Positions 2,269 through 63,412 of a stretch of 64,000 nt of DNA are shown one piece after another. Each line of letters begins with the position of its first letter. Within the stretch, counting starts at the first letter, position 1. The notes under the pieces are model-generated. The model was not told the origin of the DNA. It ran no database searches and saw only the letters and a program-made list of their open reading frames with translations. The position numbers and the translations under genes were made by a program. The stretch is from an uncultured Acidobacteriota bacterium (lineage in GTDB: Bacteria; Acidobacteriota; Thermoanaerobaculia; Multivoradales; JAHEKO01), in contig CAVQNG010000003.1 of the NCBI GenBank assembly GCA_963713825.1, positions 553,794-617,793 on the forward strand. The letters are read 5' to 3'.

Positions 2269-4722
2269 ATGAGGCCATCTCCACCCCCCTCGCCCTCCCT
2301 GACTCAGGCCGAGCATTGGTTCAGAATCTTAGCTGAAACCATGCCGGTGGCCATCTTCGTCCACCGCGAGAAACTGCTCTATGTAAACCCGGCCGCCGAG
2401 GCGATGACCGGGTACTCGGCCCCCGAGTTGATGGACATGGGCTTGCACGATCTAGCCAAGCCTCTGTCCACCAGCGATAACGGGTCCACGGCACGCTCTC
2501 TTCCCGAAGACGAAGCAGAAATCTGGAAACTCCGCCGCAAGGACGGGCAGGAGCGCTGGATTCGGCTGACCTCCGGATACGTCGAGCTCGACTGGCAGCC
2601 AGCCACCCTGGTCACGGCCTTCGACGTGACCGTCCAGGAGCAGTCGGCCATCGCGCTCCACGACGTTCGGCAGCGGCTTGCATTTGCCCAACAGGCTGCC
2701 CGGTCGGTGACCTGGGAATGGGACCCCGACAACGACGCCCTGACAACGTCTGAGCTCATCGATCAGGTTTTTGGTTTGCCCCTGCACGACCAGATCACCA
2801 GTGGTCGCGGATTCCTGGAGCTCGTTCACCCGGAGGATCAACCGAGTCTGGAACAAGCGCTGCTGCGCCTGATCAAAGGCGAGGACGAGAACCTGTCTGT
2901 CGACATCCGCTGCCTGTCGCCTCGCGGCGAGATCCGTTGGCTGGCCGAGAGAGCGGTCGCGATGCGCCATCCGTCGGGTCGCGTGCAGCGGGTCATTGGC
3001 GTCGCGCACGACATTACCGAGCGAAAGATCGCTGAGAACGCCCTATTCCAGGAAAAGGAACGGGCCTTTGTCACGCTAGCCTCGATCGCCGATGGGGTCA
3101 TTCGGACCGATGCCCGGGGCATCATCGACTACCTCAACCCAGTCGCCCAGAAGCTCACGGGGTGGACCCTCGAGGAGGCGTACGGCCAAGAGGCCGAGGC
3201 GGTCTATCGAGTGGTCGACGAGGCGACCGGTAAGAAGGTCCTCGACCCGGTCCACCACTGCCTGGAAGAGCGCCGGGAGGTCGCCTTCCTCGGCCAACGT
3301 CTCCTGGTCCGCAGGGATGGAAGCACGTTTCCCATCCATGACTCGGCCGCACCGATTCGCAACCAGGAAGGCAAGGTCATCGGCTCGATCCTGGTCTTCA
3401 AAGACCTGACCCAGGTGCGTCGCGTGGAAGACGAAATGGAGCACCTGGCCAGCCACGACCCGCTGACCGGCCTGATCAATCGTCGCGAGTTCGAGCGCCA
3501 GCTCCGTCAGACCTTGCAGGCTCGCGACGGACTGGGTGGCAGACACGCACTGTGTCAGCTGGATCTCGACGCGTTCAAGTTGGTGAACGAGACCTGTGGC
3601 CACACCGCGGGGGACCAGTTGATCCGGAAAATCGCCTCGGTCATCGAGGACCGGGTCCGACAACAGGACGTCCTGGCGCGCCTCGGTGGCGACGAGTTCG
3701 GCATCCTCTTTCGAGACTGTCCCTCGGAGGAAGCTGAGAAGCGCGCCAAGGAGATCGGCGAAGCCATACACAGCTTTCGCTTCCATTGGGGCGGCCGCAC
3801 CTTCACCAACCGGGTCAGCGGCGGTTTGGCACCGCTTTCCACCTCACACTCCGGGGCGGACGCGCTGCTGAGTGCCGCCGATGCTGCCTGTTTCGTGGCT
3901 AAAGACAAAGGCGGTGGAACCATCCACATCTATCAGCCTGGCGACCGCGAGATTGCCGAACGGTATGGCGAGATGCAGTGGATCTCACGCCTCCAAAAGG
4001 CCCTCGACGAGGACCGCTTCAGGCTCTATCACCAGATCATCAAACCGCTTGGCGCGAGCAATAGCGAACCGCCCTTGAGCGAGCTCTTCATTCGATTGAT
4101 CGACGAGGAGGGCAAGCTCGTCTATCCGGGATCTTTCATCCCTGCAGCCGAGCGGTACGGGTTGATTCCAACAATCGACCGCTGGGTCCTGCGCACCGCT
4201 CTGCATCTGCTGGCGGACGGCGGCAAAACCGTCATCGCTGACAACAGCCGCTTTGCCATCAACCTCTCGGGTCTCAGCCTCGGTGCCGAAGGCTTTCTCG
4301 ACTTCGTCGTCGATGAGCTCGACAAGACCAGGATTCCACCCGACCGGGTCTTCTTCGAAATCACGGAGACCTCCGCCATCGCCAATCTGCCAACGGCCAT
4401 GCGCTTCATCTCGGTGTTGAAGGGCATGGGTTGCCGCTTCGTACTGGACGATTTCGGGCAGGGCTTAAGCTCGTTCGGCTATCTGAAGAATCTCCCCCTG
4501 GACTTCCTCAAGATCGACGGCGGCTTCGTGAGAGAAATGGTCGCCGACCCGATCCAGGCGGCGCTCGTGGCTTCGATCCACGAGATTGGCGAAGTGATGG
4601 GCCTTGGCACCATTGCCGAGTCGGTCGAAGACGAAGCTACACTCGAGGCGCTGCGCCAGATCGGAGTCGATTACGTTCAGGGGTACCTTTTCCAGCGGCC
4701 ACGGCCGCTGAGCAAAAGCTAG
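2269..4722 (+). CDS. PAS-PAS-GGDEF-EAL signalling protein (diguanylate cyclase/phosphodiesterase)
   Basis: Two PAS blocks, RLGGDEFGILF (GGDEF) and EAL-domain motifs (FEITETSAIAN, DDFGQG, KIDGGFV). Confidence 0.9.
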   Translation: MRPSPPPSPSLTQAEHWFRILAETMPVAIFVHREKLLYVNPAAEAMTGYSAPELMDMGLHDLAKPLSTSDNGSTARSLPEDEAEIWKLRRKDGQERWIRLTSGYVELDWQPATLVTAFDVTVQEQSAIALHDVRQRLAFAQQAARSVTWEWDPDNDALTTSELIDQVFGLPLHDQITSGRGFLELVHPEDQPSLEQALLRLIKGEDENLSVDIRCLSPRGEIRWLAERAVAMRHPSGRVQRVIGVAHDITERKIAENALFQEKERAFVTLASIADGVIRTDARGIIDYLNPVAQKLTGWTLEEAYGQEAEAVYRVVDEATGKKVLDPVHHCLEERREVAFLGQRLLVRRDGSTFPIHDSAAPIRNQEGKVIGSILVFKDLTQVRRVEDEMEHLASHDPLTGLINRREFERQLRQTLQARDGLGGRHALCQLDLDAFKLVNETCGHTAGDQLIRKIASVIEDRVRQQDVLARLGGDEFGILFRDCPSEEAEKRAKEIGEAIHSFRFHWGGRTFTNRVSGGLAPLSTSHSGADALLSAADAACFVAKDKGGGTIHIYQPGDREIAERYGEMQWISRLQKALDEDRFRLYHQIIKPLGASNSEPPLSELFIRLIDEEGKLVYPGSFIPAAERYGLIPTIDRWVLRTALHLLADGGKTVIADNSRFAINLSGLSLGAEGFLDFVVDELDKTRIPPDRVFFEITETSAIANLPTAMRFISVLKGMGCRFVLDDFGQGLSSFGYLKNLPLDFLKIDGGFVREMVADPIQAALVASIHEIGEVMGLGTIAESVEDEATLEALRQIGVDYVQGYLFQRPRPLSKS

Positions 4723-4870
4723 TGACTCTCGAGCCGACCGACACCCCTGTACCTCGGCCCAGCAGAGGTCTGACCTGCAGTCTTGCTGATATATTGAAAG
4801 TCTCCGAAACGGCGGCCGGTTCGGGCCCCGTGAGCCCGAAGTCCGACCAATAGAAGAAAGGCCAAATCCG

Positions 4871-6718
4871 ATGAGATTTACCTCGCCCCAAAAAGCTCCG
4901 CCTACCTCGAACCCGAAATTGCTGGCCTGGGTCGAGAGAGTCATCGACCTCTGCAACCCGGGCAAGGTCTGGTGGTGTGATGGATCGACCGAGGAGTATG
5001 ACGAGTTGGCCCAGATCATGACCGAGACTGGAACGGCTCGATGGCTGGACCAGGAGTTGCGTCCCAATTCGCTCTATGTGCGCTCAGATCCGGCCGATGT
5101 GGCCCGCGTCGAAGACCGCACATTCATCTGTTCCCAGCGTCATGAGGATGCTGGACCGACGAACAACTGGGGTGATCCTGCGGAGATGAAGGCCCACCTG
5201 CGAGGCCTCTACGACAGCTGTATGGAAGGCAGGACGATGTTTGTCATTCCCTACTCCATGGGCCCCATCGGCAGCCCCATCGCCAGAATCGGCATCGTCA
5301 TTACCGACTCGCCCTACGTCGTCTGCAACATGCACATCATGGCTCGTGTGGGCACGAAGGTCCTGGAGGCACTCGGCGACGGTGAAGACTTCGTTCGCGG
5401 GATCCACTCGGTGGGATACCCCTTGGACAGCCAGAAGAAGCCCGATCAGCCCTGGCCCTGTAACGCCGACAACAAATACATCTGCCACTTTCCCGAGACC
5501 CGGGAGATCTGGTCCTACGGCTCCGGCTACGGCGGCAACGCTCTGCTCGGCAAGAAGTGCCACGCGCTGCGCATCGCCTCGGTCCAAGCGCGCGATGAAG
5601 GTTGGCTGGCCGAGCACATGCTGATTCTCAAGCTCACCAACCCGCAAGGGCAATCCAAGTTCGTCGCGGCGGCCTTCCCATCAGCCTGCGGCAAGACCAA
5701 TCTCGCGATGATGAATCCCACGCTGCCGGGCTGGAAAGTGGAGACCGTGGGCGACGACATCGCCTGGATGAAGTTCGGTGACGACGGCCGGCTCTACGCC
5801 ATCAATCCCGAGGCCGGCTTCTTCGGTGTAGCACCCGGCACCAGCATGCACTCGAACCCGAATGCCATGCTGTCGCTGGCCAAGAACAGCATCTTCACCA
5901 ACTGCGCCCTGACTCGGGAAGGTGACGTCTATTGGGAGGACATGCTAGACGAGAAGCCTGCCTTCCTCGTCGACTGGCTGCGCCGCCCATGGACATCGGA
6001 AAGCAAGCGGTCGGCCGCCCATCCCAACGCCCGTTTCACCGCTCCGGCCAGTCAGTGCCCAGTCATCGCGGACGAGTGGGAGGATCCGGCCGGAGTGCCG
6101 ATCGACGCCATTCTCTTCGGTGGACGCCGGGCAAAGGTCGTGCCACTGGTGACCGAGGCCTTGGGTTGGGAGCACGGCACCTTCCTGGGATCGATCATGG
6201 CGTCGGAAAAGACAGCCGCCGCCTCGGGCAGAGTTGGCGTCGTACGCCGAGATCCCATGGCCATGCTGCCGTTCTGCGGCTACCACATGGGTGACTACTT
6301 CGCCCACTGGCTCGAAGTCGGAGCCAAAGGGGGTGCCGAAGGCAAGAGTGAATGGGGATCGATGCCGCGGATCTTCTACGTCAACTGGTTCCGCAAGGAT
6401 GAGGACGGCAACTTCCTGTGGCCCGGCTTCGGTGAGAACAGTCGCGTTCTCAAGTGGGTCTTCGAGCGCTGCAACGACGAGGGCGATGTCCAGGAGAGCT
6501 TCATCGGCCTCCATCCGACCGCCGGTGGTCTGGACCTGGAAGGTCTCGACATCTCACAGGAGGACCTCGATCAGCTACTCGCAGTCGATGCCGAAGACTG
6601 GCGGCGAGAGGTCACGCTGCTGCACGACCACTACTTCCAGTTCGGTGATCACCTGCCGAAGGCCCTCGCCGATCAGCTGGCCGAGCTCGAGAGCGTGCTC
6701 AAGGCGATGACGGACTGA
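4871..6718 (+). CDS. pckG: Phosphoenolpyruvate carboxykinase (GTP)
   Basis: Full-length match to GTP-PEPCK architecture (N-terminal RFTSPQ..., kinase motifs [35 protein letters not shown]). Confidence 0.95.
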
Positions 6719-6797
6719 CTCGACGTGGCCTGGCCTCCAGGTCACTTGTGAATCAACGAACGACCCAATTGCGATACGTTGAGCGAGGAGAACCAAC

Positions 6798-8426
6798 GTG
6801 GACATCGAAGGTAGCAAGGTACTCGTCCTGGGCGGCTATGGCCTGGTGGGGATGGCGGTCTGCCGGGAGTTGTTGGAGCACAAGCCGCGAGAGATCCAGA
6901 TCCACAGCCTGCGGCAGGAAGAATCGGCAGAGGCTCGTGAGCTGCTGACGCCGTTTGCGGAAGGCGTCAAGCTCTCGATCTCGAGTGGCGACATCTTCGG
7001 ACTTGCCGAAGAAGCCTCCAGAATAGAGCGCATCGCGGCTCAGCTGAGCCCCCTTCGCGACTCGGATTGGGGAAGGTTCCTGCTGTACCGGTTGCTGGTC
7101 GATGGCAAGCCGGACATCGTGATCGATTCCGTCAACACCGCGACTGGCATCGCTTACAGGGACGTCTATTCGGCCTCGGCAAAGGTGCTGAAAAGCCTGG
7201 AAGCCGGCAGCTCGCAGTGCGATCAGGTCGAGGATCTGCTCGAAGCCCTCTATGTGCCGCGACTGATCCGCCACATGCAGCTCCTGTATGGAGGCATGAT
7301 CGACGCCGGTACTCGTGCCTATTTCAAGGTGGGGACCAGCGGCACGGGTGGCATGGGCCTCAATGTTCCCTACACCCATTCCGAAGAGAAGCCGAGCCGT
7401 GTTCTGCTCTCCAAGAGCGCCATGGCGGGAGCCCAGTCCATGTTGCTGTTTCTCATGGCCCGCACGCCGGGAGCTCCCATCACCAAGGAGATCAAGCCGG
7501 CGGCCGCTATCGCCTGGAAGAAGATCGACCACGGGCCCATCTACCGTGGACGAAAGCCCATCTACATCATGGAGGCCACCCCCCAGACCCTGGGCGAAAC
7601 CTTCTCAACCAACGATCCGACGGCAGCCAAGGCCACCGAGAGCATTCTCGAGACGGCCTACATCGATACCGGTGAGAACGGCATCTTCAGCGTCGAGGAG
7701 TTCGCGATGCTCACCACGTCTCGACAGATGGAGTTCGTGACGCCCGAAGAGATCGCTCAGTACCTCATCTTCGAGATCGGCGGGGGCAACACGGGGCACG
7801 ACGTCATCAACGCACTGGACAACGCGGTACTGGGTCCCACCTATCGGGCCGGTCTCATGCGCCATTGGGCTCTGGAACGAATGATGGAGTTCGAAGCGCA
7901 GGGCAAAACCAAGAGCGTCGCTTTCGAGATGCTGGGGCCGCCACGCAACACCAAGCTGCTCTTCGAGGCTCACCTCCTCCGAGAGGCGTTCGTCACGATG
8001 ACGGCTGTTCGCGAAGCGACCCCGGACGAAGTTGTCGAGAAGATAGAAACGATGCTTCGGGAAGAGCCGCGGCTTGCCAACGAAGTGGTCTCGGTTGGTA
8101 TTCCCATCCTCTTGTCTTCAGGCGAGATCCTGCGGGGCCAGGAGGTCATCGTGCCAGCCGAGGCGGACCACGAGCCGATCACCCCCGAGAAGCTGGAAGC
8201 CTGGGTGCACGACGGGTGGGTCGACTTGCGGCGCGAGAACTGCGCCAGTTGGATCGATCGGATGCAGCGTATCCACGACGACACGGCGGCCATTCCCAAG
8301 GACGACACCTCGAGTCGCCATTTGCGGAATGTCAGGTTCTGGGACGAGGAGAAGAGGATTCAGCCCGGCAAGATCCTGGGGTGGATTCTCTCAGTCGAGG
8401 AGCACGGCGCCCGCTTCAAGCACTGA
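6798..8426 (+). CDS. Uncharacterised 542-aa protein with N-terminal Rossmann NAD(P)-binding fold
   Basis: GTG start with GAGGAG RBS 7 nt upstream. VLVLGGYGLVG glycine-rich dinucleotide-binding motif. The rest matches no family I recognise. Same strand, 80 nt downstream of pckG. Confidence 0.7.
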   Translation: MDIEGSKVLVLGGYGLVGMAVCRELLEHKPREIQIHSLRQEESAEARELLTPFAEGVKLSISSGDIFGLAEEASRIERIAAQLSPLRDSDWGRFLLYRLLVDGKPDIVIDSVNTATGIAYRDVYSASAKVLKSLEAGSSQCDQVEDLLEALYVPRLIRHMQLLYGGMIDAGTRAYFKVGTSGTGGMGLNVPYTHSEEKPSRVLLSKSAMAGAQSMLLFLMARTPGAPITKEIKPAAAIAWKKIDHGPIYRGRKPIYIMEATPQTLGETFSTNDPTAAKATESILETAYIDTGENGIFSVEEFAMLTTSRQMEFVTPEEIAQYLIFEIGGGNTGHDVINALDNAVLGPTYRAGLMRHWALERMMEFEAQGKTKSVAFEMLGPPRNTKLLFEAHLLREAFVTMTAVREATPDEVVEKIETMLREEPRLANEVVSVGIPILLSSGEILRGQEVIVPAEADHEPITPEKLEAWVHDGWVDLRRENCASWIDRMQRIHDDTAAIPKDDTSSRHLRNVRFWDEEKRIQPGKILGWILSVEEHGARFKH

Positions 8427-8600: not shown

Positions 8601-9692
8601 GTCGCTGAGGCGGACGGGTAGCCGGCGTGCACCCCAATCCCCCGGGCTGCCATCGAAGCGTCCCGCACATGGCGTGCCACAGGCGCGGCAACTGCCGTCT
8701 GCCGTCAGTCGCCAATCGTTCAAGACATACCAGTCACGACCGATGAGCCTCTCGCCACACTCGTGGCAATAGGTACTGCCGCCTTCGTGGTCGTGAACGT
8801 TGCCGGTGTAGACATAGCGAACACCGTTGCCCATCGCGATGCGTCGAGCTCCGCTCAGCGTCTGATGCGGCGTCGGCGCGCGGTCCATCATCTTCCAGTC
8901 GGGGTGAAAAGCGGTGAAATGCATCGGCACGTCTCGGCCCAGTTTGTCCACCACCCAGCGCGACATCGCGTCGATCTCTTCGGGTGAGTCGTTTTCGCCT
9001 GGGATCAGCAGCGTGGTGATCTCGAACCAGACATCCGTTTCGTGCTGCAAGTAGACCAGGGTTTCGAGGACAGGCTGTAGGTGTGAGCCGCAGATCTCCC
9101 GATAGAACGATTCGGTGAAGGCCTTGAGGTCGACATTGGCGGCATCCATGTGGCGGTAGAACTCCTCGCGCGGCTCGGCACAGACCTCTCCTGCCGTTAC
9201 CGCCACGGCCTGGATGTCGAGCTCATGACAGGCCTGGGCAACATCGATCGCGTACTCGTGGAAGATGACCGGGTCGTTGTAGGTGAAGGCGACGCTGCGG
9301 CAGCCCAGTTCTCTTGCTGCTCGGGCGATGGTCTCCGGAGCTGCCTGATCGGCCAGGGTGTCGAACTGCCGGGACTTGGAGATGTCCCAGTTCTGGCAGA
9401 AACGGCAGGCCAAGTTGCAGCCCGCCGTTCCGAACGACAGCACCGGGGTGCCCGGAAAGAAGTGGTTCAGGGGCTTCTTCTCGATGGGATCCACACAGAA
9501 GCCACTCGAGCGACCGTAGGTAGTGAGAACCACCTCTCCGTCCAGGCAGCCACGTACGAAGCACAGCCCACGCTGTCCCTCACGGAGCTTGCAGAAACGG
9601 GGGCACAGATCGCACTGCACCCGGCCATCTTCGAGCTCATGCCAATAGCGAGTCGAAACGACGCTGGCGTCACGAGTGATGGGTACGTCCAT
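8568..9692 (-). CDS. Radical SAM enzyme, AmmeMemoRadiSam-system type (PFL-activase-like Cx3Cx2C)
   Basis: N-terminal RYWHELEDGRVQCDLCPRFCKLREGQRGLCFVR and CNLACRFCQNW cluster. C-terminal CHECG...CRACGTPC zinc-ribbon-like motif. Confidence 0.75.
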   Translation of the reverse strand: MDVPITRDASVVSTRYWHELEDGRVQCDLCPRFCKLREGQRGLCFVRGCLDGEVVLTTYGRSSGFCVDPIEKKPLNHFFPGTPVLSFGTAGCNLACRFCQNWDISKSRQFDTLADQAAPETIARAARELGCRSVAFTYNDPVIFHEYAIDVAQACHELDIQAVAVTAGEVCAEPREEFYRHMDAANVDLKAFTESFYREICGSHLQPVLETLVYLQHETDVWFEITTLLIPGENDSPEEIDAMSRWVVDKLGRDVPMHFTAFHPDWKMMDRAPTPHQTLSGARRIAMGNGVRYVYTGNVHDHEGGSTYCHECGERLIGRDWYVLNDWRLTADGSCRACGTPCAGRFDGSPGDWGARRLPVRLSDFREGGKGLRA

Positions 9693-9819
9693 GCCTGAGG
9701 CTTCCTCTCAATGCAACCAACCAAGACTGCACCGAATTCCAGTCAATGACGTACTTTCGGAGGTCCGTTGCGGGGCGTAGGAGCGTGAGGGATGGGCCCC
9801 CCACTGCTCAGAGAATCAG

Positions 9820-9935
9820 CCGCCGGAGTCGGAGGCTGATTCAACCCCCAATGCCCAAGAGCCGGCTGGAGGTACGACGGACGGTCCAACCCCCAAGCCC
9901 CCAAAGAGCGCCCGGCGGTGAGCCGGGCGCCTCCT
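9820..9935. repeat. Composite GC-rich intergenic repeat (family member)
   Basis: CAACCCCCAAGCCCCCAAAGAG followed by CGGCGGTGAGCCGGGCGCCTC. The same pair occurs at 44507-44560 and 56795-56845. Confidence 0.7.
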
Positions 9936-9943
9936 CCCCCCGG

Positions 9944-12900
9944 TCAGGGATTCACGAGCTTCACCCAATTGCGCATTGCACCCAAACTGCAGCCGAACTT
10001 CTCGTGGCCTTTGCCCAGATGCTGCGCCTCGATGATCTGCTCGCAAGAGCAGCCCCCTGTGTCACCCACCGTGAAGAAATCGGTGGGGCCACTCTGGAGC
10101 CGCCTCTGGTTACCACGGCCACCGGGGGCCGTCGTATCGAACACCCCGTCCTCATCCACCAGCGCGTACCGATTGACTCCCAGACGATCCGTCGGTACCG
10201 ACTCCGGAATCACCGTCGCCGGACAGACATCCACGTCATCGGGCACCCCGTCGTTGTCAGCATCGCTGGCCACGAAGAGAACAAGCCCGTCGTGATCGGA
10301 TGAGCGCAGGGGCGTCGTGTCGTCGTTGATCAGATCGACGAAGGCGTCGGCGTTGCCACGACCGAACTCCAGACCAGCCAGGAAGTCGTCCAACCCTTCA
10401 CTCGTCAGCGCATGGTCGAGGGCTTGACCGTTCCCAGTGAAGATGTAGGAGTAACGTTCCGCCTGATCCAGTTTCGCTGTCTGATTCGTCAGATCGGGCT
10501 CCACCAGATCAGCGCATGGGTTCGTGTCGCAGACGAGATTGTCGGCTGGCTCGAAGTCACCCACGATCTGGCCGACTGCGTCGACGTACCCGTCGGTGAA
10601 TTCAAAAGCGTTGTAGTCACCGATCACCACCAGGTGCACTTCAGGGTTCGCCGACTGCAGGGCCTGGACCTTCTCGGCAATGGACTGGGCCTGTTCGTAG
10701 CGCTTCTGCCTTACCCTCTCGCCACCGCTTGGATCATCGATCCCACCCAGGGAACGATTGTGGACCGTCATGACCGCAATGGAGAACGACCCAAACTCGA
10801 GCTCGAAAGCACCCTCGAGTAGCAAAGGTGGACGATCGTGCAGTAGCGAGCCGTCATAACTCAAGATCTCGTCCTCGCCGAGTTGGGTGATCTGGTCAAT
10901 CGTCACTGTGTCACGCACCATGAAGCCGACATCGATGCCGCCAACGTCGTTGCCCTCGATCAGGATCGGCGTGTAGATCACAGACGAATCCTCGAAAGCG
11001 ATGTCCACGGCCAGGTCCTCGAGGACCTCGATTTTCTCCGCCTCCTGGACAGCCAAGACATCGGGGGCATCGAGAACGTCGAGGATGTAGTCGACAAACT
11101 TGGCCTTCCGTCCGAAGTACTCGGCATTGTCGAAGAAACGCAACATGTTCAAGCTGCCCACTGTAAATTCTCCTGCCGCGCGCGCTCTGACCGGGCGCAA
11201 CACATCCGGCACCGGCCCCACCGACATCATCTTGGGTACAACCTTGTATCGACCGAAGGTGAAGTTCAGGGGGCCATAGCCCGAAATCGCCTGGCCGGCG
11301 AATACGGGGTCGGAGATGCCATCCAGGCCATCCGTGTCGACGTCGAAGACTTCGGGGTTTCCATCCCAGACGGGAAGATCTGATAGGCCCGGAAAGATGA
11401 TGCCGGGCTCTCGGAAGGGCCGCGGATTATCGACAACGAGACTGACCTCGCCGAACCGATTCGTCGGCCCTGAAGCGATGCCATCGAAGCTGACCAGCAT
11501 ACCCTCGAATCGCTCGAGATCCGGAACCGGAAACGGCTGGTCCGAAGGTGTCGTCGCATCGAACGGAGTTACTGTAGGCAGGGGTTCGCCGCCCCCCAGG
11601 ATGTCCACAGTTGGCGAGTCCGTGATCTCCGTCAGTTCGAAGTACTCCTGCACCCGCCCAATGACTCGTACGCGGTCTCCAATAGAGACCATTGGTGGGT
11701 CCACGCCCGTGTAGACGTAGATACCGTCCGAGGTATAGGGATCATCATCGCTGTCTGCGTCAGGTGTCTGCATGTAAAAGCTGCGAAAGGCCACTGCTGT
11801 GACCACGTTTTCGGTTGTCTTGACTTCCATGCCCTCATAGGGCGAGTAGAGGCCATCGCCCTGGATCTCCCAGATCTCCACCGTCGGGGGTCCCGGCGGT
11901 GGCTCGACTCCAGAGGTGACCATGAGGTTCTGAAAGGCGATGGCCTCCGAGCCACCATCGGTATTCGCCGTCAGGATCAGGGTGAGCGTTGAGCCGGTGC
12001 CCGTGAGCGGCGCGTAGAACGGGGCCATGTCATTGTTCAGCAGGTCTCCGTTCACCAGCATCGGGTCACTTAGGGTGACGATCGCACCGCCCTCCATCGT
12101 GTAGTCCTGCGAGGCATCCTCGTCGATCGAGCTCTGAAACGCCGTCTGTACCGCGCCACCGTCGATGCTGTAGCTCCAGTTAAAGAAATCATTCGCCGCC
12201 TCGAAGTCCCCCATCGCTCCCATGTCGATCGACAGCCCGAGATCCGACGCACCATAGATGTCGAAGACCCAGGTCGCAACTACGTCACGACCCGAGGTGT
12301 CGCCATTATTCGTGTCGACAATCCCGAAGAACTCGTCCGTATTCCCTGTCTTGATGATGCCGAGCGTATCCCCCGGGAAGGAGCCCGCAGAGTCGTCCAC
12401 CACCGCAAAAGGAATCGACGCCGATACTCCCCGCTGGAACTTGTTGAAACCATCCCCGGCAGAGGTGAACGGAATTGCCGGGTCGTCCGTAAACGACAAC
12501 AGGTTCTGCGACGCCGAGCTCACCATGTCAAAAGCGATGACTGTCGGTGGCGGTGGTGGCCCGACTCCCGCGGTGATGACGAGGTTCTGAAAGGCGATCG
12601 CCTCCGAGCCACCATCGGTGTTCGCCGTCAGGACCAACGTCAGCTGCGAACCGGTTCCCGAGAGAGCCGTGAAAAACGGGGTCAGGTTATTCGTCAGCAA
12701 CACCCCATTCATCAACATCGGATCACTTAGGGTGACGATCGCACCGCCCTCCATGGTGTAGTCCTGCGAGGCATCCTCGTCGATCGAGCTCTGAAACGCC
12801 GTCACTGCCGGACTGCCGTCGATGCTGTAGCTCCAGTTGAAGAAATCATTCGCCGCCTCGAAGTCCCCCATCGCTCCCATGTCGATCGACAGCCCGAGAT

Positions 12901-13936
12901 CCGACGCTCCACTGATATCGAAGACCCAGGTCGCAATTACGTCACGACCCGAGGTGTCGCCATTATTCGTGTCGACAATCCCGAAGAACTCGTCCGTATT
13001 ACCTGTCTTGATAATGCCCAGCGTATCCCCTGGGAAGGAGCCCGCAGAGTCGTCCACCACCGCAAAAGGAATCGACGCCGATACTCCCCGCTGGAACTTG
13101 TTGAAACCATCCCCGGCAGAGGTGAACGGAATCGCCGGGTCGTCCGTGAACGACAACAGGTTCTGCGACGTCGAGCCCACCATGTCGTAGGCAACCGCCA
13201 TCGGCACAGCAGTACTGACGATGAGGTTCTGGAAGGCGATCGCCTCCGAACCACCATCGGTGTTCGCCGTCAGGACCAACGTCAGCTGCGAACCGGTTCC
13301 CGAGAGAGCCGTGAAAAACGGGGTCAGGTTATTCGTCAGCAACACCCCATTCATCAACATCGGATCACTTAGGGTGACGATCGCACCGCCCTCCATGGTG
13401 TAGTCCTGCGAGGCATCCTCGTCGATCGAGCTCTGAAACGCCGTCACTGCCGGACTGCCGTCGATGCTGTAGCTCCAGTTGAAGAAATCATTCGCCGCCT
13501 CGAAGTCCCCCATCGCTCCCATGTCGATCGACAGCCCGAGATCCGACGCTCCACTGATATCGAAGACCCAGGTCGCAATTACGTCACGACCCGAGGTGTC
13601 GCCATTATTCGTGTCGACAATCCCGAAGAACTCGTCCGTATTACCTGTCTTGATAATGCCCAGCGTATCCCCTGGGAAGGAGCCCGCAGAGTCGTCCACC
13701 ACCGCAAAAGGAATCGACGCCGATACTCCCCGCTGGAACTTGTTGAAACCATCCCCGGCAGAGGTGAACGGAATCGCCGGGTCGTCCGTGAACGACAACA
13801 GGTTCTGCGACGTCGAGCCCACCATGTCGTAGGCAACGACCTGAGCCTCCGACGCGGTCGGTAGAGCCAGCAGTAATGCCATCAAGGCCAAGAACAGAGT
13901 GGAAACCGAAACAAACCTCGAGGTCTTTGCGAGCAT
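9944..13936 (-). CDS. Secreted extracellular nuclease, COG2374/ExeM-NucH-like. Order is signal peptide, 3 tandem ~214-aa domains of unknown function, OB-like module, EEP (endonuclease/exonuclease/phosphatase) domain and a Cys-containing C-terminal tail.
   Basis: Start MLAKTSRF... with GGAGGAG RBS. Signal peptide ...ALPTASEA. Three repeats each beginning AYDMVGSTSQNLLSFTDDPAIPF. COG2374-like block FRSFYMQTPDADSDDDPYTSDGIYVYTG...GDRVRVIGRVQEYFELTEI. EEP motifs FTVGSLNMLRFFD and DVLAVQEAE. Confidence 0.85.
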   Translation of the reverse strand: MLAKTSRFVSVSTLFLALMALLLALPTASEAQVVAYDMVGSTSQNLLSFTDDPAIPFTSAGDGFNKFQRGVSASIPFAVVDDSAGSFPGDTLGIIKTGNTDEFFGIVDTNNGDTSGRDVIATWVFDISGASDLGLSIDMGAMGDFEAANDFFNWSYSIDGSPAVTAFQSSIDEDASQDYTMEGGAIVTLSDPMLMNGVLLTNNLTPFFTALSGTGSQLTLVLTANTDGGSEAIAFQNLIVSTAVPMAVAYDMVGSTSQNLLSFTDDPAIPFTSAGDGFNKFQRGVSASIPFAVVDDSAGSFPGDTLGIIKTGNTDEFFGIVDTNNGDTSGRDVIATWVFDISGASDLGLSIDMGAMGDFEAANDFFNWSYSIDGSPAVTAFQSSIDEDASQDYTMEGGAIVTLSDPMLMNGVLLTNNLTPFFTALSGTGSQLTLVLTANTDGGSEAIAFQNLVITAGVGPPPPPTVIAFDMVSSASQNLLSFTDDPAIPFTSAGDGFNKFQRGVSASIPFAVVDDSAGSFPGDTLGIIKTGNTDEFFGIVDTNNGDTSGRDVVATWVFDIYGASDLGLSIDMGAMGDFEAANDFFNWSYSIDGGAVQTAFQSSIDEDASQDYTMEGGAIVTLSDPMLVNGDLLNNDMAPFYAPLTGTGSTLTLILTANTDGGSEAIAFQNLMVTSGVEPPPGPPTVEIWEIQGDGLYSPYEGMEVKTTENVVTAVAFRSFYMQTPDADSDDDPYTSDGIYVYTGVDPPMVSIGDRVRVIGRVQEYFELTEITDSPTVDILGGGEPLPTVTPFDATTPSDQPFPVPDLERFEGMLVSFDGIASGPTNRFGEVSLVVDNPRPFREPGIIFPGLSDLPVWDGNPEVFDVDTDGLDGISDPVFAGQAISGYGPLNFTFGRYKVVPKMMSVGPVPDVLRPVRARAAGEFTVGSLNMLRFFDNAEYFGRKAKFVDYILDVLDAPDVLAVQEAEKIEVLEDLAVDIAFEDSSVIYTPILIEGNDVGGIDVGFMVRDTVTIDQITQLGEDEILSYDGSLLHDRPPLLLEGAFELEFGSFSIAVMTVHNRSLGGIDDPSGGERVRQKRYEQAQSIAEKVQALQSANPEVHLVVIGDYNAFEFTDGYVDAVGQIVGDFEPADNLVCDTNPCADLVEPDLTNQTAKLDQAERYSYIFTGNGQALDHALTSEGLDDFLAGLEFGRGNADAFVDLINDDTTPLRSSDHDGLVLFVASDADNDGVPDDVDVCPATVIPESVPTDRLGVNRYALVDEDGVFDTTAPGGRGNQRRLQSGPTDFFTVGDTGGCSCEQIIEAQHLGKGHEKFGCSLGAMRNWVKLVNP
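11964..13848. repeat. Intragenic tandem triplication with a 642-bp period. Units 12581-13222 and 13223-13864 are ~99% identical; unit 11964-12580 is diverged.
   Basis: Identical antisense ORFs at 12837..13190 and 13479..13832 (offset 642). Direct alignment of 12581-13206 against 13223-13848 shows only a few mismatches. The third copy from ~11964 is about 85% similar. Confidence 0.9.
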
Positions 13937-14180
13937 CACCATTCTCCTCCCAGGCATGCAAATGGATGGATACCAGCCAGAGACACGCCTCCCGTGTACA
14001 TGTCCTCGTACCGGGTGGCCTCCATGCCTGTCTCCCTCCAGACATTGCTCACCTGCGCTGCGGGTGAGCGGATTCCAGGTGTACTACTAACTTAGCCCAC
14101 CCAGCGAAGGAGTCAAGCAGGTATTGACACTTGTCTATGGGTCTTCCTCGCGTCGACACGCCGGCAAGGGAACACTCCCT

Positions 14181-14345
14181 CCCAATCGTCCAGAGGCGTG
14201 GGTCTTGGGGTTGAAGCGTCCGGTCGTCCCACCCGGCCGGTCCTTGAGGGCTTGAGGTTGAAGAGCCCGTCGTCCCTCCGGCCTACCTTTGAGGCAGTGG
14301 GTCTCCCTCCCGTTTTCCTAAGCCCTTAGGCCCCTACGCCCTTAT
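14181..14345. repeat. Composite GC-rich intergenic repeat, same module order as 63075..63252
   Basis: GGTTGAAGCGTCCGGTCGTCCCACCCGGCCGG, TGAGGGCTTGAGGTTGAAG, TTGAGGCAGTGGGTC and CCTAAGCCCTTAGGCCCCTACGCCCTTA. Confidence 0.75.
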
Positions 14346-14364
14346 TGCCTTCAGCGGTGCCAGA

Positions 14365-14546
14365 GGTTCGTCCCGGGGCCTCTCGACAAGCGCAGCGCAA
14401 GAGCCATGGCAATGCTAGACAGATCCGGTTCGCAGGTGGCGGCCCGCCCTTGAAGTAGGGGAGGGGCTTGCCCCCTCCCACTGGAGCCCTCAAGGGGCTC
14501 CCCTACATTGCCGACGCCGTCCCCCTGCGAGCCACCCGGACGGATC
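14365..14546 (+). mobile_element. MITE-like non-coding element with imperfect terminal inverted repeats (copy 1 of 3)
   Basis: Starts GGTTCGTCCCGGGG and ends GAGCCACCCGGACGGATC. Internal CTCGACAAGCGCAGCGCAAGAGCC, GCAGGTGGCGGCC and GCCGACGCCGTCCCCC are shared with 63253..63412 (same orientation) and 51899..52058 (reverse orientation). No ORF. Confidence 0.6.
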
Positions 14547-14631
14547 TCAATTCGAGAACGGCCCCGAGACACTGAATAAGAGAACGGCCGGCAGGGGCGC
14601 CGGCCGCTTGAGGATTCTCACGTATGTGATG

Positions 14632-14976
14632 TCAGTCGCTGGTGCCGCCCTCGAGGCGGTCGGCCTTGGCGGCCCAGACGAAGTCGCTTTCGGTCAGGCC
14701 GTCGATCTTGTGGGTCCAGATCTTCAAGCCTACCTTGCCCCAGGTCAGGAAGATCTCGGGGTGATGGTTCACCTCTTCCGCCAGCTCCCCGACCCGATTC
14801 GTAAAGGCGAGTGCTTCGACGAAGTTACCGAATCGATACTGCTTCTCGAGGTGATGGCTGTCCACCAATTTCCAGTCGTTCCCGAGCCGTTCGTAGAGAC
14901 CCGCCAGTTCTTCGCCTTCGAGAGGAGGTACGCCTCCCCTGCAAGGTACACAAATGCCATCCGCAAGCTCACTCAT
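14632..14976 (-). CDS. phhB: Pterin-4-alpha-carbinolamine dehydratase (PCD/DCoH)
   Basis: EEVNHHPEIFLTWGKVGLKIWTH matches the PCD signature [E]-x3-H-H-P...T-H. 114 aa. Confidence 0.85.
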   Translation of the reverse strand: MSELADGICVPCRGGVPPLEGEELAGLYERLGNDWKLVDSHHLEKQYRFGNFVEALAFTNRVGELAEEVNHHPEIFLTWGKVGLKIWTHKIDGLTESDFVWAAKADRLEGGTSD

Positions 14977-15023
14977 CCGCAGTCTCCTTCGGCTTGCCTT
15001 CGGTTCGCTGTCGCGTCACCGAT

Positions 15024-15752
15024 CTAGTTGCTGTCACTGTAGTTGACCATGGCCTGCGTCCCGTCGTCGGTAGCAGAGATGATCACCATTACCGTGCGAT
15101 CCTCAGTCTCTTGGGAAGCGATGACCTGGCCACCCTTGCCGTCGGGTCCCGAGTACTCGGTCTTCTGGACGCTCCACTCGTCGTCTTCGAGCTGCTCGAC
15201 GTAGAAAGCCAGCACGTCATCCACCGATTCCGAGGTGGTCAGTTGGAACGATCCACCCACGCCGTCGGGTGTCGACGCCGAGTAGGTGCCTGTCGTCGTG
15301 CCGCCGGGAAAGACCGGCACCCAATCCGGCAGGCTGTCCATGTCGGAGCTGCCGACTCGCATGGTCTCCCCACCATCCGTCGTCACTGTGAACAGACCCT
15401 CTTCGGGGTCGCCCGAGGCACTGAACTCCATCTCTCCCTCGTCCGTCTCGAAGCTCAGCTTGCCCTTTTCGATGTCGGCGTAGTTGACCGTGATGACCTC
15501 GCCACTGTCCTTCTCGCGAATCGTGATCGTGCCCGCATCCCGATCACTGTCCACGAGCTCGAGATCCGGGTTCATCTTGATCAACATCTCGGCCGCCGCC
15601 TCTGGATTCTCCTGAAAGTCCTCAGCGAAGTCACCGACCTTCTTGGCTACGAAGAAGCCGCTCACCGACACGATGATTGCACACACCACCAGCAGGCCAC
15701 CGCAGCCAATCGCCACCCAGGCCCACGGGCTCAGACCTTTCTTTTCGGTCAT
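15024..15752 (-). CDS. Membrane-anchored acidic periplasmic protein (single N-terminal TM); possible partner of the upstream ECF sigma
   Basis: Start MTEKKGLSPWAWVAIGCGGLLVVCAIIVSV (TM), then a D/E/T/G-rich soluble domain. Lies 137 nt downstream of the ECF sigma on the same strand. Confidence 0.6.
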   Translation of the reverse strand: MTEKKGLSPWAWVAIGCGGLLVVCAIIVSVSGFFVAKKVGDFAEDFQENPEAAAEMLIKMNPDLELVDSDRDAGTITIREKDSGEVITVNYADIEKGKLSFETDEGEMEFSASGDPEEGLFTVTTDGGETMRVGSSDMDSLPDWVPVFPGGTTTGTYSASTPDGVGGSFQLTTSESVDDVLAFYVEQLEDDEWSVQKTEYSGPDGKGGQVIASQETEDRTVMVIISATDDGTQAMVNYSDSN

Positions 15753-63252: not shown

Positions 63253-63412
63253 GGTTCGTCCGGGTGGTTCGGCAGGGGGGGCTCGACAAGCGCAGCGCAA
63301 GAGCCGTCGAAGTTCACGGCCCATCCGGCGCGCCGGAGAGCGCAGGTGGCGGCCAAACCCGTCAAAGCCTGAGTAGCCGACGCCGTCCCCCGGCGAACCA
63401 CCTGGGCGCGGA
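63253..63412 (+). mobile_element. MITE-like non-coding element (copy 3 of 3)
   Basis: Starts GGTTCGTCCGGGTGGTTCG and ends CGGCGAACCACCTGGGCGCGGAC. Shares CTCGACAAGCGCAGCGCAAGAGCC and GCAGGTGGCGGCC with 14365..14546. Confidence 0.6.

Follow-up and report, generated by a model that had tools for sequence, protein, structure and literature searches.

The stretch of DNA analysed here (64,000 nt; hereafter the window) comes from contig CAVQNG010000003.1 of an uncultured Acidobacteriota bacterium (assembly GCA_963713825.1, forward-strand positions 553,794 to 617,793), a host described as a sediment bacterium. The gene of interest is an uninterrupted open reading frame (ORF) of 1337 aa on the minus strand, at 9944-13957, which holds a nuclease module of 645 aa and, before it, three units of about 214-219 aa each, arranged in tandem and in frame. 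From the N terminus these are called A, B and C. Units A and B are almost identical at the nucleotide level, and the analysis concerns what the units are, how A and B came to be so alike and what the gene product may do.

Anatomy of the gene

The encoded protein runs in the order signal peptide, unit A, the linker VSTAVPMA, unit B, the B-C linker, unit C, a Pro-rich linker and the nuclease module, all on the minus strand. The core of unit A, the extra N-terminal copy (codons 41-246, 13220-13837), scored 301 bits with the hidden Markov model (HMM) of the unit. It is followed by the A-B linker (13196-13219; also written GTCAGTACTGCTGTGCCGATGGCG), which is unlike the other linkers, and by the core of unit B (codons 255-460, 12578-13195). 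The B-C linker (12539-12577; ITAGVGPPPPPTV, in full domain order ITAGVGPPPPPT) is the same as that between units 1 and 2 of the related protein P0122. The core of unit C (codons 474-679, 11921-12538) is joined to the nuclease by the Pro-rich linker (11882-11920; VTSGVEPPPGPPT, also given as GVEPPPGPPT). In orthologs with two units, unit 1 is the positional match of B and unit 2 that of C.

Direct repeats begin at 11917, 12574 and 13216, with start-to-start spacings of 657 and 642 nt, both multiples of 3. The triple array was not reported by Tandem Repeats Finder, its period being beyond the program's maximum of 500; it was found by a repeat search and direct comparison instead. A and B differ at 3 of 618 nt (99.5% identity), with a longest exact run of 587 nt at an offset of 642 (12609-13195, the other arm at 13251-13837), a candidate conversion tract. 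B and C differ at 59 of 618 nt (90.5% identity). An exact repeat of 587 nt within 64 kb is not due to chance. Further copies of the unit in the window were sought with tblastn and none was found.

A sequence-only reading of this DNA had described a near-perfect 642-bp duplication, its copies at 12581-13222 and 13223-13864 differing at a handful of positions. The repeat exists, as three direct copies in one ORF with the 587-nt exact run, and A and B are indeed 99.5% identical over 618 nt, but 27 nt of the 642-bp register are not homologous. The two intervals show 20 mismatches, 18 of them within 13196-13222 versus 13838-13864, and these 27 nt are non-homologous because the A-B linker is there being set against the end of the signal peptide. 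The third copy, put at about 85% similar, is similar, though that figure is slightly low, since blastn of the same coordinates gave 91.2% over 566 nt. Three tandem copies of a domain of about 214 aa in a secreted nuclease, also proposed there, were borne out by the ORF, the profile matches and the unit HMM. The same applies to the identical antisense ORFs, which lie on the plus strand at 12837-13190 and 13479-13832 and encode 117 aa each. As genes these ORFs were rejected and are taken as shadow ORFs: they have no match in Pfam or any other family, and the gene on the other strand is conserved and under purifying selection.

The start codon, within 13936-13957, is ambiguous. The longest ORF begins with MPGRRMVM… at 13957, and the source annotation begins at Met8 (MLAKTSRF…, 13936), giving 1330 aa. 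Only the Met8 form was present in the protein collection; exact products of 1337 and 1332 aa were absent from it. A putative signal peptide (aa 1-38, 13844-13957, ending …LLALPTASEA before Q) was read by eye from the translation, with a basic n-region, a hydrophobic core and a cleavage site between ASEA and Q; the N-termini of the relatives L100 and P0122 are alike.

The N-terminal region of the nuclease module (aa 693-930, 11168-11881) was recognised by NF033681 (ExeM/NucH; 112 bits at aa 716-826) and by PDB 9sf9. The whole-protein score of 112.1 bits is below the curated NF033681 cut-off of 300, and the match covers profile positions 2-110 only. By sequence, PDB 9sf9, an unnamed EEP protein, is also the nearest solved structure (E = 8e-11, query residues 2-281). 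The EEP catalytic domain (aa ~931-1225, 10283-11167) was assigned from its motifs, GSLNM at 934, VQEAE at 970, VHNRS at 1065, GDYNAF at 1113 and SSDHDG at 1219, and from PF19580, which scored 25.7 bits in this region against a cut-off of 27. Judged by these motifs, the predicted metal- and phosphate-binding residues of an EEP domain are present. ExeM proper (NF033680) gave 53 bits against a cut-off of 1300, and PF00932, the lamin tail domain (LTD), had no match in the window protein. The C-terminal tail (aa 1226-1337, 9947-10282) consists of an acidic, TSP3-like motif, DADNDGVPDDVD, followed by a Cys-containing stretch of about 90 aa (…GGCSCEQIIEAQHLGKGHEKFGCSLGAMRNWVKLVNP). The tail had no family match, yet it is covered in most nuclease homologs, and it may be a sorting or binding domain. 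No GlyGly-CTERM was found at the end of the protein, ...NWVKLVNP, where a hydrophobic anchor is lacking. Homologs of the nuclease module number more than 2000; they bear PF19580 or PF03372, and their source name is often "predicted extracellular nuclease".

Taken together, the gene product is predicted to be a secreted modular nuclease of the ExeM/NucH-like kind, with putative DNase activity. Like ExeM of Shewanella oneidensis, Xds of Vibrio cholerae and NucH, it is predicted to be secreted and has an N-terminal accessory module, and like ExeM/NucH (NF033681) it has the region of the profile start and then an EEP domain with N/E/H/D-N/S-D-H motifs. Its score of 112 bits is, however, far below the ExeM/NucH cut-off of 300. 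It further differs from ExeM in having three undescribed units in place of the LTD, and the TSP3-like motif and Cys-containing tail in place of the GlyGly-CTERM anchor.

The unit as a domain family

Neither Pfam nor NCBIfam had a match to the unit region (aa 40-692), and a search of PDB with the profile of the unit family returned nothing at E <= 1. The literature search found papers on ExeM and on sediment nucleases, and none on the unit or on PDB 9sf9. The unit family is small, with 527 clusters (50% identity) among 1.84 billion representatives. The majority of its members are proteins of about 260 aa made up of a signal peptide, one unit and PEP-CTERM, found in Gammaproteobacteria, Planctomycetota and Acidobacteriota metagenome-assembled genomes (MAGs). 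They share the same domain with the window protein at 40-65% identity over the full unit, and differ from it in carrying a single copy, no catalytic domain and a PEP-CTERM/exosortase anchor, which the window protein lacks. Among the best 150 representatives of the family there are 30 nuclease fusions, 24 with one unit, five with two and one with three; other partners of the unit are LTD, RTX, cadherin-like and Calx-beta domains. Seen from the side of the nuclease, 80 of the 120 closest homologs have no unit, 12 have one and 27 have two. Many of the 80 carry LTD or Big_5 at the position of the unit, which is otherwise empty. The order signal peptide, unit, LTD, with the unit directly before the lamin tail domain, was observed in L101 (1235-2544), P0333 and P0332; since such proteins exist, the unit and the LTD are combinable and not strict alternatives.

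An AlphaFold2 model of the unit, built from 48 sequences, was all-beta with a mean confidence (pLDDT) of 95.7, and its predicted fold is a jelly-roll beta-sandwich like those of MAM domains and carbohydrate-binding modules (CBMs). There is no sequence kinship between the unit and the tandem CBMs (CBM4, CBM6 and CBM22 pairs) or MAM domains. The unit has about 210 residues compared with 130-170 in CBM and MAM domains, one third of it remaining unaligned, and its enzyme partner is a nuclease, whereas that of tandem CBMs is a glycosidase. The invariant columns of the unit are mainly acidic or polar (D49, D58, D76, N79, E114 and D118 in unit numbering), and the unit is possibly stabilised by calcium. 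With regard to function, ExeM lacking its N-terminal LTD still degraded DNA in vivo and degraded it more slowly in vitro, with reduced activity (PMC6085458). Because ExeM retains this reduced activity without the LTD, N-terminal modules such as the LTD are accessory (PMC6085458). In the light of the modelled fold and the domain context, the unit is probably a targeting or ligand-binding accessory module in the role of the LTD.

Near-identity of units A and B

The number of units was compared among close relatives, as the sequence-only reading had proposed, and it differs: one in P0448, P0449 and P0001, two in L079 (ENA) and L081 (JGI) and three in the window. L079 and L081 are the nearest orthologs; they are syntenic, 88.8% identical to the window gene in nucleotides and mutually identical in their units. 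Since the linker between their units 1 and 2 is the B-C linker of the window gene, unit A is the extra copy. Three units are also present in P0316. Similar near-identical arrays recur independently in two other, unrelated lineages. In L167, a 169-kb contig, two units are 96.9% identical in nucleotides, with 14 of the 19 mismatches within the last 90 nt. At least three units are present in the Zixibacteria MAG L168, the second and third being 98% identical over the 111 nt available; L084, 94.6% identical to L168, has two. In the majority of proteins with two units, each unit is still recognisable as a positional ortholog, at 60-85% aa identity. Unit gain and homogenisation are thus recurrent but occasional.

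Two of the relatives have irregular genes. In L167 the homologous gene (4001-7993) is broken into three ORFs of 517 aa (units and the start of an LTD), 91 aa (a fragment) and 655 aa (the nuclease), either as a frameshifted pseudogene or through indel errors of long-read assembly. In L080 (86-3193, P0121), a 92%-identical ortholog, the first unit lacks profile positions 143-168 (…TAFENTVDEDLTPFFTTLSG…), which could be explained either by an in-frame deletion in the beta-sandwich or by a short-read mis-join between repeats.

Within the window gene the units are more alike than are positional orthologs, that is, they evolve in concert. B compared with unit 1 of L079 and C compared with unit 2 are both 86.4% identical in nucleotides, below the 90.5% between B and C. 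Synonymous divergence (dS) is 0.014 between A and B, 0.25 between B and C and 0.39-0.57 between positional orthologs. At 66 of the 92 sites that differ between the two units of the ortholog, B and C agree with each other, in a mosaic of unit-1-like and unit-2-like states. The ratio of non-synonymous to synonymous divergence (dN/dS) was 0.10-0.24 in all comparisons, the mark of purifying selection. Horizontal acquisition of the units was rejected, with GC content (0.59) and GC content at third codon positions (0.77) as in the neighbouring genes.

The differences between A and B fall at unit codons 196, 202 and 206, all within the last 31 of the 618 nt (p ~1.3e-4 under uniform mutation). From the 5' edge, which is the start of the unit, there are 587 nt of exact repeat, then three differences in 31 nt, then an unrelated linker; although the differences are few, their clustering at one edge has the appearance of the end of a conversion tract. 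Alignment showed no derivation of the A-B linker from the B-C linker, the linker between C and the nuclease or the end of the signal peptide, and in length and character it is an ordinary inter-unit linker of the family. Recent duplication, gene conversion and copy-number variation had all been suggested from the letters of the sequence. Unit number does vary and concerted evolution is evident, but a simple fresh 642-bp duplication fits badly, because neither the B-C linker nor the end of the signal peptide shows any relation to the A-B linker.

The reading that we favour, at a probability of roughly 0.6, is that of a three-unit secreted nuclease whose extra N-terminal unit was homogenised with B by gene conversion and whose units serve as binding modules. 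The base architecture of the lineage would have had one or two units, and one more would have been gained on the N-terminal side in the window genome. Then, or simultaneously, intragenic recombination (gene conversion) would have made A and B identical over at least 587 nt, without reaching the linker or the 3' end of the unit, and the same process would keep all units of the clade alike. Each unit may tether the nuclease to a polymeric substrate or to the surface of the cell or matrix, in which case more units would give more avidity or reach. The anatomy of the repeat, its open frame, the purifying selection, the two-unit state of the nearest ortholog, the class of fold and the partner domains are shown; conversion as the mechanism, the binding role and any dependence on calcium are inferences.

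Several points weigh against this reading. The 24-nt A-B linker has no explained origin, and a duplication with filler DNA and very little time could fit as well. The three-unit window protein is a singleton among about 15 billion sequences. The A-B junction peptide IVSTAVPMAVAYD, searched as a wobble-tolerant DNA pattern, had zero matches in metagenome contigs, and the junction motif occurred in 0 of 476 retrieved proteins. L079 and L081 come from k141 short-read assemblies, in which an identical third copy may have collapsed. Copy number and A/B identity in the window are known from the assembly only, and short-read polishing of a long-read assembly could erase interior differences between A and B and so mimic their clustering at the edge. 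As to binding, similarity to known structures is weak (some 135 of 212 residues align, with identity <=15% and TM-score <=0.5), and the role proposed for the unit comes from fold class and domain context, neither of which indicates a ligand.

Of the other explanations, the one that survives best is a very recent duplication of unit 1 in one step, through either unequal crossing-over or slippage during replication, a short filler being inserted at the junction and no conversion following. The dS of 0.014 between A and B, the two-unit state of the nearest orthologs, the differing unit number among relatives and the singleton status of the three-unit protein are all as it would predict. However, the junction is not a unit end joined to a unit start: 24-27 nt of unrelated sequence intervene that nevertheless look like a linker. 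The only differences between A and B are gathered at the 3' edge (p about 1e-4), L167 shows a like edge pattern, and conversion is demonstrably active between B and C. With these facts set side by side, we consider a duplication of this kind rather unlikely.

The near-identity could also stem from assembly or polishing, the true number of units being two or some other (a strain-variant loop), or the differences between A and B having been erased by consensus polishing. That short-read assemblers mishandle such arrays had been pointed out beforehand, and the warning holds for relatives: the contig of L100, the closest relative of A and B (93% in nucleotides), ends within unit 1, that of L168 ends within unit 3, and many matches to the unit family are partial proteins on contigs <5 kb. 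The internal gap in a unit of P0121 and the absence of the A-B junction from the other data sets searched point the same way. The warning weighs less for the window gene, since a single contig of 1,903,115 bp is the recorded source of both the 1330-aa product and its neighbours; short-read collapse is unlikely for a gene on a 1.9-Mb contig, the reads of which would normally span an array of 1.9 kb. Moreover, the junction is unique sequence and must exist in the reads, the reading frame continues unbroken through a plausible linker, and L167, another long contig, has a similar near-identical pair. An artefact is accordingly improbable in our view.

Large identical in-frame repeats, each a folded domain, are known from Alp/Rib proteins of group B streptococci, SasG/Aap, Esp and Bap, in which near-identity is kept by recombination and the number varies between close relatives. 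The window units resemble these in being in frame, hundreds of bases long and each a whole domain; they differ in that just two copies are near-identical here, in that relatives have mostly diverged units and in that the protein is an enzyme of an environmental bacterium. A programmed contingency locus, with identical units for frequent RecA-dependent gain and loss and size variation of a surface protein as in Gram-positive cocci, is highly improbable: unit number does differ in very close relatives (L168 and L084, 94.6% identical in nucleotides; the window and L079) and near-identical adjacent units occur in three lineages, but only two units are identical, the units of most family members are stable and diverged (positional orthologs at 60-85% aa identity), the differences in number are seen between relatives only, and sediment exerts no host immune pressure.

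Overall, the locus is an ordinary case of a modular secreted enzyme whose domains were amplified and evolve in concert.

Surroundings of the gene and significance of the unit

The neighbouring genes are housekeeping genes, encoding phosphoenolpyruvate carboxykinase (PEPCK), a radical SAM enzyme, pterin-4a-carbinolamine dehydratase (Pterin_4a), sigma factors, DnaG and MutS2. Cluster mates of the recorded proteins are named Thermoanaerobaculia. Upstream of the nuclease gene, the intergenic stretch 13958-14631 contains a 45-bp tandem repeat in two copies at 14204-14294 and pieces of 19-35 nt that recur elsewhere in the window in both orientations (for example, 14510-14544 resembles 51935-51901, and 14382-14405 resembles 63282-63305). 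Nine of nine related short-read contigs from Thermoanaerobaculia (L158-L166) end at the Pterin_4a stop codon or no more than about 100 nt past it. This suggests a dispersed repeat, like repetitive extragenic palindromes (REP) or miniature inverted-repeat transposable elements (MITE), that breaks assemblies in the intergenic region.

A hairpin of 11 pairs, GC-rich and followed by a T-rich tail, lies on the minus strand at 14583-14608, 24 nt past the Pterin_4a stop. Because this terminator-like structure follows that stop codon, the nuclease gene probably has its own promoter; a search of 9600-14700 for sigma-70-like promoters found none.

Compared with L079 over 9051-15394, the window is 98.7% (15024-15394) and 96.6% (14653-14977) identical in the upstream genes, 88.8% in the nuclease gene and 83.4% in the downstream radical SAM gene (9051-9693), and its intergenic region is longer by about 270 nt. 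Such mosaic identity points to recombination in this region or to uneven divergence.

In marine sediments, a large part of the phosphorus and nitrogen is recycled by extracellular nucleases (PMC8289736), and how these enzymes are targeted to their substrates is poorly known. The present gene belongs to a sub-group of ExeM/NucH-like enzymes in which one to three copies of a unit undescribed in databases replace the lamin tail domain, and PEP-CTERM anchors also display the same unit alone on cell surfaces. What novelty there is, and it is modest, resides in this unit, an unannotated domain family, the evolution of the repeat itself being textbook domain gain and concerted evolution. As a practical warning, genes of such nucleases in short-read assemblies are usually truncated at the unit array. 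Identification of the ligand would help in the annotation of several hundred protein families. We consider it possible, although doubtful, that the unit founds a family of extracellular binding domains, so far undescribed, that recognise extracellular DNA or a matrix polymer, with the copy number in nucleases quickly tuned by intragenic recombination. If true, sediment bacteria would adjust the grip of a DNA-foraging enzyme on its substrate through the number of its units.

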